Shown here in pieces: positions 1 through 12,124 of a DNA stretch of 17,953 nucleotides. Every line of letters begins with the position of its first letter. Position 1 is the first letter of the stretch. A program made the translations under genes and the position numbers. Origin of the DNA: a virus (lineage: Duplodnaviria; Heunggongvirae; Uroviricota; Caudoviricetes); the IMG/VR virus record IMGVR_UViG_3300027896_000022, positions 1 to 17,953 of that record; one strand, given 5' to 3'. The notes under the pieces are model-generated. The model was not told the origin of the DNA. It saw only the letters and a list, made by a program, of their open reading frames with translations, and made no database searches.

Positions 1-299
1 ATACTGGCTATACAGGTTATACAGGTGCTGGTGCTTATACTGGTACCACTGGCTACACTGGTTATACTGGCTATACAGGTGCTGGTGCTTATACTGGTAC
101 CACAGGTTATACAGGTTATACTGGCTATACTGGCTATACAGGTTATACAGGTGCTGGTGCTTATACTGGTACCACTGGCTACACTGGTTATACTGGCTAT
201 ACAGGTGCTGGTGCTTATACTGGTACCACAGGTTATACAGGTTATACTGGCTACACTGGTCACACAGGTTATACAGGTTATACAGGTTATACCGGACCT
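1..299 (+). repeat. 9-bp-unit coding repeat (GGN TAY ACN) containing a perfect 126-bp tandem duplication (1-126 = 127-252)
   Basis: Read directly. The block GGTGCTGGTGCTTATACTGGTACCAC starts at 24, 78, 150 and 204 (spacings 54, 72, 54). Confidence 0.95.
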
Positions 300-626
300 G
301 CAGATCCTAAACCAAAAGTTTTATCAGCTGCTAGTTATACTACTGATACAGGAACTTCATTGAATTGTGATAACTTGAGTTTATTTATCGTTACTGCTCA
401 GGCTGGTGCTTTAAAATTTAATAATCCTGGCGGAACTCCGGCTGATGGTCAAAGACTTTGGATTGCGGTAACTGGAACGGCGGCAAGAGCATTGACTTGG
501 GACACTAAATTTGAAGCAAGTGCTGGTGCAGCTTTGCCAACTACGACCGTAACTACCGCCAGATTAGATATTGGATTTGTTTGGCGTGCTGATACGAGTA
601 TGTGGCGTTGCGTAGCAATTTCTTGA
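3..626 (+). CDS. 5'-truncated collagen-like (Gly-Tyr-Thr) fibre protein with a C-terminal globular domain
   Basis: Frame +3 is open from the window edge: [16 protein letters not shown]...[76 protein letters not shown]...WRCVAIS*. The listed ORF 360..626 is only its tail, since TTG360 is internal and in frame. The C-terminal domain resembles a common phage fibre-end module. Confidence 0.88.
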
Positions 627-1446: not shown

Positions 1447-1671
1447 ATGAAAAATTTTTTTAAAAAATTTCTAAAATTAATAGACGGTAAAAAAACTGTT
1501 ATTTTAGGAATTTTAAGCGTTATTGTCTTGTATTTACTTCAGGTAGATTTTATTTCAGCACCTCTTGCCTATGCCTTAGAAGGTATTTTAACTGTTTTAG
1601 GTGGTGGAGCTTCCTATGCAACAAAACGTTTTGCTAATAAAGAAAATGTCGCTAAGGTAGAAGTTAAGTAA
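1447..1671 (+). CDS. Holin-like small membrane protein (2 predicted TM helices)
   Basis: 74 aa. Basic N-terminus, GKKT motif followed by hydrophobic helix VILGILSVIVLYLL, second helix LAYALEGILTVLGGGASY, basic C-terminal tail. Confidence 0.65.
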   Translation: MKNFFKKFLKLIDGKKTVILGILSVIVLYLLQVDFISAPLAYALEGILTVLGGGASYATKRFANKENVAKVEVK

Positions 1672-1672
1672 T

Positions 1673-1837
1673 ACGCATCATTCCTTTTGGGAAAATTATT
1701 TTAAGGTGTTTTGGAACATTGTTGAATTTGGTGTTAAAACAATTTTGACTTTTTGTCTAGCTGTAATCTTGACAGTAATTCTGTATGGATTAGTACTTTT
1801 ATCTTTAATAATTTTTTCAAAATTAACTTTTATGTAA
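1673..1837 (+). CDS. Putative small hydrophobic membrane protein (ACG start at 1673, or GTG at 1706)
   Basis: A stop-free frame fills the gap between 1671 and 1842: (T/M)HHSFWENYFKVFWNIVEFGVKTILTFCLAVILTVILYGLVLLSLIIFSKLTFM*. There is no upstream ATG in frame without crossing TAG1658. Not in the ORF track. Confidence 0.4.
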   Translation, partial: THHSFWENYFKVFWNIVEFGVKTILTFCLAVILTVILYGLVLLSLIIFSKLTFM

Positions 1838-1841
1838 ATCT

Positions 1842-2144
1842 ATGAGCGAGCAAGAAGTATGTAATCAACCAATCAGAGATATTGTAATAGAATTACGGAC
1901 TGAAGTTCGTAATATTCGCTATGATATCGCAGATTTAAAAAGTGGGACTACAGAAAGAATCAATACTCTTGAAAAAGATAAAGCAGATAGGGTAGTAGTA
2001 GATGCCGTGCAAAAGAAAATCGATGAAGATGTAGAAGTTAGAATTAGAAAATTAGAAAATAATGTAATTAAGATTTTTTCTTATGCTACTTTGGCTGGAG
2101 CTATAATTAGCATTCTTGCCGAATGGGGACTAAAAAAAATATGA
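1842..2144 (+). CDS. Coiled-coil protein with a C-terminal TM anchor (lysis-cassette/holin-like)
   Basis: 100 aa. Heptad-like charged helices followed by IFSYATLAGAIISILAEWGL and a KKI tail, an architecture common next to phage lysis genes. Confidence 0.6.
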   Translation: MSEQEVCNQPIRDIVIELRTEVRNIRYDIADLKSGTTERINTLEKDKADRVVVDAVQKKIDEDVEVRIRKLENNVIKIFSYATLAGAIISILAEWGLKKI

Positions 2145-2233
2145 AGATATTTAATGATTTTTATTGGATAGTAATCCTTATAGTTTGCATAGAAATGGCT
2201 GTATTCTTTTATTTTATTTCAAGAATAAATTAA
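2141..2233 (+). CDS. 30-aa single-TM peptide
   Basis: MKIFNDFYWIVILIVCIEMAVFFYFISRIN*. It starts in an ATGA overlap with the upstream stop and ends 4 nt before the next ATG. Not in the ORF track. Confidence 0.55.
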   Translation: MKIFNDFYWIVILIVCIEMAVFFYFISRIN

Positions 2234-2237
2234 ATAT

Positions 2238-3125
2238 ATGGATTGGAAACCCTTTAAAACAACCCCAAATAAGATCCAATTTATAAATGCCGGATATGGC
2301 AACGCATTTGACACTTCATTTTGCGTCACCTTTTCAATCCTGAAATGTTTGCAGACAATTTTTAATCAGATGATCAGCTTAGGTCTTATTCCACAGGCCT
2401 ACCTTGACTGGTTAAAATTGAATAATTACCTTAATAATCTTGGACAACTTGATTTTTCACCTCGTTTCACGGGGACGATGGCAGATACAACCATTTATGG
2501 AAATTCTCAGTGGAACGTTATGAATGCCATTATTGCCTATGGACTGATACCAGAAAAAACATATCCAAATCAGGCAAACAGTTGGACGGAATATGCCGAT
2601 GAGACAAAAATAACTCAAGAAATGAAAGATTTAGGGCAGGAATTCTTAAAAAGATTTCTCTTAGATTCTAAAGAGGAATCATATTTTTCTGCCTTAGACA
2701 AGTCACCTCTAGACGGTATTGTAAGATTTGCCGATGGCAATGGAATACTTTCACCTGTCGGGCCAACTAATCATGGCATAATGGTTGAAAATGATGGTGA
2801 TGATTTGACTTATGTTAATATTAGTGATTCTTATTGGCAAGAAGAAAAAAAATATGATAGAAATAAAGTTTCTTTTCTTAAATCATTTATTATAACGCCT
2901 AAAACTATGACGCCAGAACAAATAGCCGCATTTATTAAAAACAATGACTTAAAATGGGTAAGAAATAAAGACAATGGTTCATTCGGCAGAATTATGCAAG
3001 GACAATTAAAGACATTTACTACCAATGATAGGGCGGTAGACTGTTTGCTTGATGACGCAGTCAGAAAAAATGGCATTCAAATTTCAAATGTAGAATGGTT
3101 AGCTTTGCCAAAAGTTGCTTTTTAA
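2238..3125 (+). CDS. Papain-like (clan CA, C1-type) cysteine peptidase with a short C-terminal domain; candidate endolysin
   Basis: C29 in DTSFCVTFS (cf. papain CGSCWAFS), DFSPRF, YGLIPEKTYP (cf. GxxxExxYP), H179 in TNHGI (cf. NHAV), D197 in ISDSY (cf. NSW). No signal peptide. Confidence 0.75.
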   Translation: MDWKPFKTTPNKIQFINAGYGNAFDTSFCVTFSILKCLQTIFNQMISLGLIPQAYLDWLKLNNYLNNLGQLDFSPRFTGTMADTTIYGNSQWNVMNAIIAYGLIPEKTYPNQANSWTEYADETKITQEMKDLGQEFLKRFLLDSKEESYFSALDKSPLDGIVRFADGNGILSPVGPTNHGIMVENDGDDLTYVNISDSYWQEEKKYDRNKVSFLKSFIITPKTMTPEQIAAFIKNNDLKWVRNKDNGSFGRIMQGQLKTFTTNDRAVDCLLDDAVRKNGIQISNVEWLALPKVAF

Positions 3126-3144: not shown

Positions 3145-3173
3145 AAGACAAAAACCAAAAAATATGGTATAAT
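3145..3173 (+). promoter_or_regulatory. Sigma70-type promoter with extended -10
   Basis: AAGACA (3145-3150, 4/6 match to TTGACA), 17-bp spacer, TG at 3165-3166, perfect TATAAT at 3168-3173, in the intergenic gap upstream of the tail operon. Confidence 0.75.
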
Positions 3174-3197
3174 AAGGGAAAATTGAACAATAAAAAT

Positions 3198-3473
3198 ATG
3201 TTTGGAAACAATTTAATGGCTACCATTCTTTTGGGAGGAAAAAAAATCTTTGGACAAGGATATGTTCAAACAAATTCCGTTGAAGAATTGAATATTTTTA
3301 CCCCCGGGGAAGCCACTGAAGGTGAAACGGCAGGCAGAGATGCCTTCCCCAGTGGTGATTTAATAGAAATAGTAGATATTGGAGGAAATATCTGGGATAG
3401 CAATGATGATAATGGCGGTGATATGACAGGATCAGAAAACGTTGATGGAAGTATGTCAAGTGACAGTGATTAA
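3198..3473 (+). CDS. Small acidic protein of unknown function (probable virion-associated)
   Basis: The ORF track starts at TTG3183, but ATG3198 (after AATAAAAAT) matches the start context of other genes. Hydrophobic N-terminus MFGNNLMATILLGG, then a D/E/G/S-rich tail. Confidence 0.65.
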   Translation: MFGNNLMATILLGGKKIFGQGYVQTNSVEELNIFTPGEATEGETAGRDAFPSGDLIEIVDIGGNIWDSNDDNGGDMTGSENVDGSMSSDSD

Positions 3474-3496: not shown

Positions 3497-5224
3497 ATGA
3501 GCATAAATCTTCGCGCCGACAACAGGTCTATTATAAAGGATGCAAAATATTCCTATTTAATAGATAACTATTCTTCTAATGTGTCAACTATGACTGTGGC
3601 TAATCCTGAAGGATTTTTCCATAATAGTTATATTTTAGTAGGAAATATTGGATCAGAAAATACTGAAATGTTGCAGCTTCAGAAAGTTGATCCAGTCTCT
3701 GGCGCTTTGACTTTTATAAACTTCACCGCAATGGCTGTTGGTAGTGGAATAGCTACGGCAATTATAAATAATGGCGGAACAGGATATTCATTGGGAGAGA
3801 TTTTAACTGTAGTTCAAACTGGTGGTGCAACCGGTTCTGTTCGCGTTGCTACCATTGGTGGCGGTGGTGTTATTACAAGTGTTACAGTAGACCAACCTGG
3901 TTATGGTTATTCTGTAGCCAATGGAGTGGCTACCACAGGAGGTGGAAGCAATACTGCCACTATAGATATTTTGACTTTAACCACACCGACTACTGCTACA
4001 AGCATTCTTTTTGGAACAAATCAATTTTTTATTGCCGGCCAGCCAGTAGAAGTTTTCTCACCTGCTGGTGTTAGCCGCGGGACAGGAACAGTTTTAACCA
4101 GCAGCAATGCCACAAGTTCTGTTATGACTTTATCTGGTGCAGGTATAGCTGGAACTGTTGCTGGAGACACGGTAGTTGTTAGTGATCTTACTAAATTTGC
4201 TCATTCTGAAAGCACTAAAGTAGTTGTCCTACAATATAATAAAGTTAGATTTTTTAGGACAGACACCCCAGCGGTTCCTAATGTTGCCCCATATATGGCT
4301 ATTAATGAAAATCAGGATAAGTCTATTACCCAGACAACAAAGTCAGTGATGGGAGCGGTTAGGACAACCACATATAATCAATCAGATGATCCTTCTTCTG
4401 TAACAACTGTTGATTTTACCCCGCCTATTGTTTCTACGGGTGCATTGGCATTAACTGTTCCTTTGCCAATTCAGGTTAATGATTTTTATACCACCTTTAT
4501 TGATTCTATTAATTCCACCGGTTATGGTTGGTTCTCTTTTTACAATTCAACAACTGCTTTATATTCTCCAATTTCAAATCCGATTCCTTATTCAGGATTT
4601 CCGCAAAATACAGTGAAAAAAGTGTTTGAATCTTTTAATAGTTCAATGAATACTAAAGAATTAAAGCTGATTACCTCAGAAGATCGCTTCAATTGGCTGA
4701 ATGAAGGAGTATCCTACATGGTTAATGAATTGAACATGGTTAACTATGAATATTTCGCCACCGAGGAATTGCAATTGAATTTAAAGGCTGGAATAGCAAA
4801 ATATTTATTGCCTCAGGATTTTTCAGCTCTTTTATTCATTAATGATTCAAAGGGCATAAAAATAAATGCTTATGATGCCACTTTTGCCAGGGCTAATGTG
4901 GCTTCCATAATGCAATATGCGGTTAGAGGTAAATTTATAATATTTTATCCGCCGCCGCAATTAGATGACACTGCAACTTTAGCTTATCTGAAAAGTTCAT
5001 CAGTTTTATCAAAATTAGATGATGTTATTGACTTGCCAGATAATGCTTATTATGCCATTAAAGATTTTATGCGGTTTAGGGCTTATCAAAAATTACAAAA
5101 TGCTGCCGAGTCTCAAAATTCTTTTATTTTCTTCAGCAAGATGGTAGAAAGCATGAAGATTCATGCTATAAGAAGAGATGATGGTCTTGATAGTTGGTCT
5201 ATTGCTGATACAGCTAATACTTAA
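3497..5224 (+). CDS. Head-tail adaptor-like protein with a large N-terminal modular extension
   Basis: The C-terminal ~205 aa carry WLNEG, LKAGIAKYLLPQDF, YAVRGKFIIFYPPP and DVIDLPDNAYYAIKDFMRFRAY, a pattern seen in podovirus adaptor (T7 gp11/P22 gp4-like) proteins. It lies directly before a nozzle-like gene. Confidence 0.7.
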   Translation: MSINLRADNRSIIKDAKYSYLIDNYSSNVSTMTVANPEGFFHNSYILVGNIGSENTEMLQLQKVDPVSGALTFINFTAMAVGSGIATAIINNGGTGYSLGEILTVVQTGGATGSVRVATIGGGGVITSVTVDQPGYGYSVANGVATTGGGSNTATIDILTLTTPTTATSILFGTNQFFIAGQPVEVFSPAGVSRGTGTVLTSSNATSSVMTLSGAGIAGTVAGDTVVVSDLTKFAHSESTKVVVLQYNKVRFFRTDTPAVPNVAPYMAINENQDKSITQTTKSVMGAVRTTTYNQSDDPSSVTTVDFTPPIVSTGALALTVPLPIQVNDFYTTFIDSINSTGYGWFSFYNSTTALYSPISNPIPYSGFPQNTVKKVFESFNSSMNTKELKLITSEDRFNWLNEGVSYMVNELNMVNYEYFATEELQLNLKAGIAKYLLPQDFSALLFINDSKGIKINAYDATFARANVASIMQYAVRGKFIIFYPPPQLDDTATLAYLKSSSVLSKLDDVIDLPDNAYYAIKDFMRFRAYQKLQNAAESQNSFIFFSKMVESMKIHAIRRDDGLDSWSIADTANT

Positions 5225-11419: not shown

Positions 11420-12124
11420 ATGGATACTACAAATAATCTTCCAACAACTCTTAGGCCAGTTTTTCTTAATCCTGAAACGCAGAGTGCTTATGATGCTTCA
11501 AACCCTGTAGCAGATTATCAGCAATCTGATACTGAACCGGTTGCAGACGACGCTCAATCTGCAGATGGAACTCAAACTGATAGTTCAGGTTTTTCTCCAT
11601 ATTTATCTGCTTTTTATAAGGCTCAAAAAAATTATGTTCCAAAAACTTCAACAAATATTTCAACTCCAACTTCAACCCAAATTCCGTCTCAATTATATAA
11701 AAATCTTAACACAAAATTTAATAGTCTTGGCGCAATAACTACCGAATATGGAGATACTACAAGATATGAAAAGTTTCATCCAGGCATTGATATTGCTAAT
11801 AAAGCTGGCACTCCAATCCCAGCATTTGTCCCCGGCGTGGTTACTTCTGCCACTACAGGGCATAAACATGGAGAAAAAGGTTTTGGTAATAGCGTAGTTG
11901 TTACTGACGCTAATGGTGATAGGCATAGATACAGCCATCTCCAACAGGTTTATGTTAAAATAGGAGAACCAGTTGGTTCTGGGCAGGAGTTAGCAACTAT
12001 GGGAGATACAGGTTCTACCTATTCTCCGTCAGGAAAAGGAACTGGAACTCATTTAGATTACAGAATTGTTGATGCTTATTCTAAAGCAGTAAATCCATAT
12101 TCTTATTTAAAAAATTCTATATAA
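11420..12124 (+). CDS. M23-family metallopeptidase with a disordered N-terminal extension; putative virion-associated lysin
   Basis: H120-PGI-D124 (HxxxD), GFGNSVVV, RYSH173L, GQELATMGDTG, GTH211LD213Y (HxH site as HxD), VNPYSYL. It lies between large ejection-like genes. Confidence 0.92.
   Translation: MDTTNNLPTTLRPVFLNPETQSAYDASNPVADYQQSDTEPVADDAQSADGTQTDSSGFSPYLSAFYKAQKNYVPKTSTNISTPTSTQIPSQLYKNLNTKFNSLGAITTEYGDTTRYEKFHPGIDIANKAGTPIPAFVPGVVTSATTGHKHGEKGFGNSVVVTDANGDRHRYSHLQQVYVKIGEPVGSGQELATMGDTGSTYSPSGKGTGTHLDYRIVDAYSKAVNPYSYLKNSI

Follow-up and report, generated by a model that had tools for sequence, protein, structure and literature searches.

A papain-fold peptidase as the probable holin-dependent endolysin of a freshwater phage

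We analysed the first 17,953 nucleotides (nt) of the virus record IMGVR_UViG_3300027896_000022 (IMG/VR), hereafter the window. They belong to a phage genome of 88,184 nt that is complete and bears direct terminal repeats. A cassette of five genes lies at positions 1447-3125 (+ strand) of the window, and its last gene (2238-3125) encodes a 295-amino-acid (aa) protein predicted to be a cysteine peptidase of the papain type. We consider this protein to be probably the holin-dependent endolysin of the phage, and it is highly probable that the family to which it belongs represents a peptidoglycan-directed lysin domain. The support for both statements is comparative and structure-predictive throughout, and from it we infer the enzymatic activity, the bond that is cut, and a role in lysis in preference to an M23 peptidase encoded elsewhere in the window.

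In the proposed mechanism, genes 1447-3125 would act as the lysis cassette of an 88-kb podovirus-like phage, with the tail-fibre genes on one side and the adaptor gene on the other. Its endolysin, the 295-aa protein, would be a cysteine peptidase that is cytoplasmic, lacks a signal peptide, and adopts the full papain fold; C29 is the putative nucleophile, and H179 and D197 would complete the triad. The predicted cut is most likely at a peptide bond of peptidoglycan, in either the stem peptide or the cross-bridge, and the C-terminal 73-aa domain probably keeps the enzyme on the wall. The enzyme would gain access to the wall only once the small membrane proteins encoded upstream permeabilise the membrane; such holin-dependent release fits the peptidase because it has no hydrophobic segment.

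Fold and catalytic residues of the cassette peptidase

The catalytic domain of the peptidase comprises residues 1-222 of the 295 aa (2238..2903, + strand) and was assigned a papain (C1A-like) two-lobe fold with the candidate oxyanion residue Q14 and the predicted catalytic residues C29, H179, and D197. It is followed by a 73-aa alpha/beta domain (residues 223-295; 2904..3125 including the stop codon, + strand). A word-indexed search yielded 50 homologues of the peptidase, none of which was named or carried a precomputed Pfam domain, and Q14, C29, H179, and D197 were invariant in 43 aligned homologues. Hydropathy analysis detected no hydrophobic segment and no signal peptide in the protein. Furthermore, the match to the papain fold began at residue 1, leaving no propeptide such as that of the secreted C1A zymogens.

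An AlphaFold2 model built from the homologue alignment reached a pLDDT of 94.6 and a pTM of 0.80. C29 opens the helix 29-47, H179 opens the strand 179-186, and D197 comes after the strand 192-196 in this model; as modelled, the placement of Cys, His, and Asp in the secondary structure is the papain arrangement. An exhaustive structure comparison (VIA) with 48,161 solved chains gave calotropain (8JCR) as the best match (Z 18.4, root-mean-square deviation (rmsd) 2.4, 176 aa aligned), followed by further C1A enzymes such as falcipain-3 (Z 18.2), xylellain (Z 17.8), the cathepsins C, X, B, and H (Z 15.6-17.1), and Cwp84 (Z 15.6). The top 24 rows were all C1 enzymes, the C1A rows spanning Z 13-18, and other clan CA families scored lower: PeiR at Z 11.2, the double-glycine C39 peptidases at approximately 10, and staphopain at 9.9. 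Foldseek concurred with a match to cathepsin H (E 7e-6). By its model, the 295-aa protein has a true C1-type papain fold. A preliminary description of the cassette, made from the sequence alone, had proposed a signal-less C1-type peptidase with C29, H179, and D197, and both the conservation of these residues and the structure search bore this out.

Sequence comparison gave no such assignment. No Pfam model reached its cut-off on the 295-aa peptidase, and PF00112 matched 0 of the 43 family members. Peptidase_C1_2 gave E 0.011 on the peptidase (15 bits versus a cut-off of 22) and sub-threshold matches to two of the 43 members. Peptidase_C39_2 (PF13529) also gave sub-threshold matches to two of the 43 (best E 0.0092) and none to the window protein. 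CHAP and NlpC/P60 showed no match up to E = 1 for the window protein or up to E = 0.1 for the other members, and when the family profile was searched against the sequences of solved structures, only two chance matches came up. Judged by these profiles, the family belongs to neither C1 nor C39_2.

The C-terminal domain was modelled alone with a pLDDT of 94.1. It had no significant match among the solved structures (best Z 3.8, EccB1); the weak rows included the wall-binding PlyCB (Z 2.9) and the C-terminal region of LysIME-EF1 (Z 2.6), which are a hint at most. Searching the ESM Atlas likewise gave weak shape matches only (TM-score 0.53-0.64). The domain occupies the place that PG_binding_1 holds in three longer members of the family (P0174, P0186, and P0044), and it is therefore a candidate cell-wall-binding module.

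Family size and domain fusions

A profile search of 1.84 billion cluster representatives (50% identity) assigned at least 2,625 clusters to the peptidase family at E <= 1e-3, 1,017 of them at E <= 1e-30. When the window protein and two other members were compared by tblastn with 50,697 GenBank phage records, no match was obtained, and a pattern search of species-representative prokaryote genomes gave one match, on a 5.9-kb contig binned into a Saccharibacteria metagenome-assembled genome (MAG). Hence, the family seems to be one of uncultured phages. It is also invisible to endolysin catalogues, since these are built on Pfam domains.

We scanned 29 longer family members with Pfam (E <= 1e-3). 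PG_binding_1 was found in six members, Peptidase_M15_3 in two, and Phage_lysozyme, Amidase_2, SLT, and SLT_3 in one each; all six Pfam families are peptidoglycan-related. After the peptidase domain, P0174 (510 aa) carries PG_binding_1 (E 1e-7) and Amidase_2 (E 9e-29), and P0186 (501 aa) carries PG_binding_1 and Phage_lysozyme (E 7e-30). PG_binding_1 follows the peptidase domain in P0132 (507 aa) and P0044 (362 aa), SLT in P0049 (504 aa), and an SLT_3-like domain in P0166 (427 aa). C29, H179, and D197 were invariant in the fused multi-domain members as well. By their domain composition, the fused members are built like modular and bicatalytic endolysins. In the window protein, no Pfam domain is fused to the peptidase domain, and the C-terminal domain is unassigned.

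These fusions suggested that the substrate is murein, and that the bond cut differs from those cut by the amidase, lysozyme, and M15 partners. Of the two targets that the preliminary description had named, peptidoglycan was thus favoured, and nothing found pointed to surface-layer proteins. Its proposal of a host with an atypical envelope was not borne out: no result pointed to such a host, and the fusions argue for ordinary murein.

Small membrane proteins and gene neighbourhoods

Upstream of the peptidase gene, four hydrophobic ORFs (open reading frames) are packed into 0.8 kb of the cassette according to hydropathy. By a crude hydropathy measure, a hydrophobic stretch was present in 17 of the 113 ORFs of at least 50 aa in the whole genome, several of these being wrong-frame shadows of collagen repeats. 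All five ORFs of the cassette were present as described earlier. The first and second genes are separated by 34 nt and the second and third by 4 nt; the third and fourth overlap, and another 4 nt separate the fourth from the peptidase gene.

The first gene (1447..1671, + strand) encodes a 74-aa holin-like membrane protein with a strong transmembrane (TM) segment at residues 14-41, a weaker hydrophobic segment at approximately 37-58, and a Lys/Glu-rich C-terminal tail. It had no Pfam or PHROG match below E 0.2 and no homologue but itself among 5.8 billion proteins. The protein has the features expected of a holin, namely small size, at least one TM segment, a charged C-terminus, and proximity to a lysin gene, and appears to be the best holin candidate of the cassette. 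The second gene (1706..1837, + strand) has a GTG start and encodes a 43-aa peptide that is almost wholly hydrophobic. BLASTP aligned it with a 69-aa ORF in the same place of locus L016 (48% identity over 27 aa, E 1e-5), and owing to this homology with its positional counterpart we regard it as a conserved gene. Of the two lengths proposed earlier for this peptide, 43 aa stands, and the 54-aa form with a canonical start is ruled out by a TAG in the same frame at 1658-1660, after which no canonical start occurs before that of the 43-aa ORF.

The third gene (1842..2144, + strand) encodes a 100-aa protein with a coiled-coil-like polar N-terminal region and, by hydropathy, a C-terminal TM segment at residues 75-92; it showed only weak matches to coiled-coil families in Pfam and PHROG and has two unannotated homologues. 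Neither this protein nor the 74-aa protein matched its positional counterpart in L016 by BLASTP. The fourth gene (2123..2233, + strand) encodes a hydrophobic peptide of 36 aa, or of 30 aa if started at ATG 2141. This ATG shares bases with the TGA that ends the 100-aa gene (ATGA coupling), in agreement with the coupled 30-aa TM peptide of the preliminary description. The 100-aa protein is a candidate holin partner or regulator, and so are the 43-aa and 30/36-aa peptides. Hydropathy and visual inspection revealed no signs of spanins: the cassette encodes no lipobox protein, and the 100-aa protein is anchored C-terminally, not N-terminally.

XhlA and the holin families gave no match up to E = 1 among the small proteins of the window and ten small proteins of neighbouring loci, save for a match of Phage_holin_10 (E 0.28) to a 72-aa protein of L005, which was at chance level and was rejected. 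The holin roles, including that of a multi-component holin, are thus proposed only from size, hydrophobicity, and position. Two more small multi-TM proteins are encoded at positions 32806-33129 (107 aa) and 57633-57986 (117 aa) of the genome. Neither adjoins a lysin gene, and they are candidates for alternative holins or for unrelated membrane proteins.

The neighbourhood of the peptidase gene was surveyed in the window, in L002, L003, L005, L010, L012, L013, L015-L020, L022, L023, L025, and L027, in the loci of P0174 and P0186, and in one prophage. As the preliminary description had led us to expect, 18 of 19 loci encoded small membrane proteins no more than ~1.5 kb from the peptidase gene; these neighbours are presumably holins. 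In the SU10-like relatives, the fibre genes are followed by genes for a 59-76-aa protein and for a coiled-coil protein with one TM segment. The peptidase gene comes next, frequently after a tiny hydrophobic ORF that overlaps its start, and leads on to the adaptor block. The 59-76-aa proteins have two hydrophobic segments (recognised by eye only in the 59-aa protein of L016), with one strong TM segment in L017 and L023. In most related loci, proteins of 59-95 aa with two or three hydrophobic segments hold the place of the 74-aa protein. Proteins built like the 100-aa protein adjoin the peptidase in L003, L012, and L016, and the 158-aa protein of L002 has a central TM segment. In L017, L018, L019, L020, L022, L023, L025, and L027, the 100-aa protein is replaced by a 101-156-aa family, encoded upstream of the peptidase, with an N-terminal TM segment and a coiled coil; an 'NH..H.E' motif is present in seven of these eight. 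Tiny hydrophobic ORFs overlapping the peptidase start recur in L003, L018, L019, L020, L025, and L027.

Within the cassettes of six loci, we also observed proteins of 65-79 aa with a 'KHHI...ER..AWHFLF' motif, which resembles HNH by eye only (L003:4914-5153, L018:3502-3720, L020:3387-3587, L023:3652-3858, L025:2888-3085, and L027:893-1096). These proteins could represent mobile elements or have a regulatory function.

In unrelated phages, the peptidase gene lies at the end of the late block, or at most two genes from it, after genes for giant proteins of 847-1,895 aa. A gene for a small membrane protein overlaps or follows the peptidase gene, and replication genes come next (on the opposite strand in L109). 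In the loci of P0174 and P0186, a giant protein is encoded directly before the peptidase and multi-TM proteins of 81 and 95 aa after it; in L109 the strand switch comes next. The C-terminal 62 aa of P0049 (residues 443-504), which begin with Met and contain two TM segments, showed 47% identity (E 3e-12) to L012:7229-7417, a free-standing two-TM gene downstream of P0050. This homology therefore ties the peptidase to that two-TM membrane protein, the tail of P0049 being either a real enzyme-membrane protein fusion or the product of a lost stop codon.

Alternative explanations, setting, and related systems

A second peptidase gene of the window encodes an M23 peptidase (234 aa; 11420..12124, + strand; Pfam PF01551, E 1.3e-19), which is not part of the cassette and is the sole rival endolysin candidate that we detected in the genome. 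The other 97 ORFs of at least 50 aa in the genome were compared with Pfam, the 2,330-aa protein at 15071-22063 excepted, and included no lysin family; the families found were those of replication, recombination, methyltransferase, glycosyltransferase, and structural proteins. The earlier statement that no classical endolysin was recognisable therefore holds for the scanned ORFs outside the window and needs qualifying within the window, where the M23 gene lies. The M23 peptidase has a disordered acidic N-terminal half with a 110-aa leader, and its PHROG matches were tape-measure, minor head, and endolysin families. Its gene lies between those of an 823-aa and an 861-aa protein, upstream of that of the 2,330-aa protein, and has no adjoining membrane protein according to hydropathy. 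Because of the leader, the lack of a membrane-protein neighbour, and the position among large proteins, an ejected entry lysin is a better fit for it than an endolysin, and it is probably a virion-associated entry lysin.

Several points weigh against the papain-fold peptidase as the endolysin. C1-type enzymes normally cut L-peptide bonds, and a large part of the murein stem has D- or gamma-linkages. The oxyanion role of Q14 is uncertain: this invariant residue sits 15 residues before C29, and the oxyanion Gln of papain is 6 residues before the Cys. The small membrane proteins match no known holin family, and L015 is an exception in which the peptidase has no neighbouring membrane proteins. A role in the virion is possible, given that the gene lies among the structural genes in the SU10-like group. 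Finally, the M23 peptidase could be the true endolysin.

This last point leads to the best-surviving rival explanation, in which the M23 peptidase is the real endolysin and the papain-fold enzyme cuts surface-layer, wall-anchored, or tethering proteins of the envelope after the holin fires. M23 is an established lysin catalytic domain with endolysin matches in PHROG here, C1 enzymes favour ordinary protein substrates, and phage papain-like clusters with SLH wall-anchoring domains exist. However, the M23 gene is located among those of large internal virion proteins with no membrane protein near, the disordered N-terminal half of its product is as in ejected proteins, and the papain-fold family includes fusions with PG_binding_1 and with second muralytic domains, as in bicatalytic endolysins. 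We consider this explanation unlikely. Somewhat less likely again is that the papain-fold peptidase acts at entry, as a lysin of the virion or some other particle component, its adaptor-side position being structural. The gene is always between the tail-fibre genes and the adaptor block in the SU10-like group, which this explanation would account for; on the other side, the 295-aa protein is free-standing with small membrane proteins as neighbours, its relatives in unrelated phages are encoded near the end of the late block beside holin-like genes, and the M23 protein already provides a candidate entry lysin. A protease for phage or host proteins apart from envelope breakdown, for instance in virion maturation or host takeover, is very improbable, for although the papain fold is generic and C1 peptidases of unknown role occur in some phages and giant viruses, every fused domain in the family is peptidoglycan-related, the linkage to membrane proteins is steady, and no context of capsid or scaffold processing was seen.

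The phage came from a freshwater metagenome; one freshwater DNA sequencing run matches and is possibly the source sample, and no RNA run was listed. Its capsid protein, portal, and adaptor are of the SU10 type. All window genes are on the + strand. Genes for collagen-like and glycine-rich fibre proteins (3-1417) come first, and the cassette lies between them and a gene for a small acidic protein, which precedes the adaptor gene (3497-5224); genes for large unassigned proteins follow. After the M23 gene come more large proteins, among them the giant 2,330-aa protein (15071-22063, + strand), which starts in the window and extends beyond it. The collagen-like repeat gene (frame 3-626) casts a wrong-frame shadow, an ORF listed at 25-363 (+ strand) whose 'hydrophobic' translation is an artefact. 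The ORF that separates the peptidase gene from the adaptor gene (3183-3473, 96 aa, acidic) is kept in L002 (83 aa), and the sequence common to both begins with 'MFGNN', so its real start is probably ATG 3198. A promoter-like site with a TG-extended TATAAT was observed at 3145-3173; promoter and terminator scans of the sequence were overall at chance level.

We also attempted to narrow down the host. For the capsid protein, the tblastn matches were limited to a C-terminal decoration-like segment of 100 aa in mycobacteriophages, and the phage RecA was 45-51% identical to proteins of many phyla; both were uninformative. A Shine-Dalgarno core (GGAG/GAGG/AGGA at -20..-1) preceded three of the 113 ORFs, compared with 11% of random 20-mers; the leaders were A/T-rich, and 65% had T at -1. 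Examples in the window are the starts at 656, 2238, and 7067. Starts without a Shine-Dalgarno sequence are typical of Bacteroidota or candidate phyla radiation (CPR) hosts. The nearest genome-associated homologue of the peptidase was that of the Saccharibacteria MAG. A distant but unmistakable family member is encoded by a prophage (G192:C3, ~72.6-112 kb) in a Patescibacteria genome of 1.1 Mb, on a contig of 146.6 kb; this member aligned with the family at an hhalign probability of 98.9% (E 1.4e-17), with Cys, His, and Asp aligned. In this prophage (L114:14193-15782), the peptidase gene lies between those of membrane proteins of 101 and 94 aa, with a fibre-like gene nearby; an HK97-type portal is ~16 kb off, and SecA (E 3e-230) and aminopeptidase N are ~20 kb off on the other side. 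Since the prophage resides in a Patescibacteria chromosome, some phages with such a cassette infect Patescibacteria. The family profile matched two of 401 sampled Patescibacteria genomes (one being the seed) versus 0 of 401 Bacillota genomes, numbers too small for a statement on enrichment.

The reading of the peptidase as a holin-dependent endolysin can be set beside known systems. In Bacillus, cassettes of the PBSX type (xhlA-xhlB-xlyA) encode, beside the holin and the lysin, a small protein that has a coiled coil and is anchored in the membrane by its C-terminus. The 100-aa protein is similar in build, but it had no XhlA match up to E = 1 and the PBSX lysin is an amidase; the resemblance is a lead only. 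PeiW, PeiP, and PeiR (C71) of methanogen viruses are likewise viral clan CA cysteine peptidases that serve as wall-cutting lysis enzymes. Unlike the C1A matches, PeiR aligned weakly (136 aa), and the Pei enzymes act on a different wall polymer in archaeal hosts, whereas the fused domains of the present family bind bacterial murein.

With papain family C1A, the peptidase shares the fold over residues 1-222 (Z 15.6-18.4, rmsd 2.3-2.6 for 8JCR, 3BPM, 3OIS, the cathepsins, and Cwp84 4CI7) and the catalytic order of a Cys at a helix N-terminus, a His, and a polar third residue; its motif D197-S-Y-W resembles N175-S-W of papain. It differs from C1A in lacking a signal peptide and a propeptide, in having Asp for Asn as the third residue, in the Gln-Cys spacing of 15, in its low identity (12-19%, with PF00112 undetected), in the extra C-terminal domain, and in the phage lysis context.

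Cysteine-peptidase endolysin domains are established for CHAP (C51), NlpC/P60 (C40), Amidase_5, and Peptidase_C39_2 (PMC10318531, PMC8223927). A classification of papain-like enzymes from 2023 placed all peptidoglycan-active families in an NlpC/P60-CHAP cluster and not with C1 (PMC10318531), and our literature search found no paper describing a C1-type endolysin. The known endolysins resemble the present family in their clan CA Cys-His-polar machinery, in their modular build with wall-binding and second catalytic domains, and in holin release. However, the four established domains are minimal papain-like cores of ~100-150 aa, whereas the peptidase domain described here is a full two-lobe domain of ~220 aa and structurally nearest to C1A (Z 18) rather than C39 (~10). 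By analogy, it would act like the known cysteine-peptidase endolysin domains and yet be a different, larger, full papain fold.

The chances are even, in our estimate, that the family is an unnamed major catalytic class of endolysins, with a full papain fold and C1-like cleavage of peptidoglycan, in phages of uncultivated bacteria including Patescibacteria (CPR). If the family does cut peptidoglycan, it would be a new catalytic class among lysis enzymes and give lysin engineering a new scaffold, and it would account for many uncultured phages that seem to have no endolysin. The link to a Patescibacteria prophage offers a handle on phage lysis of uncultivated bacteria.

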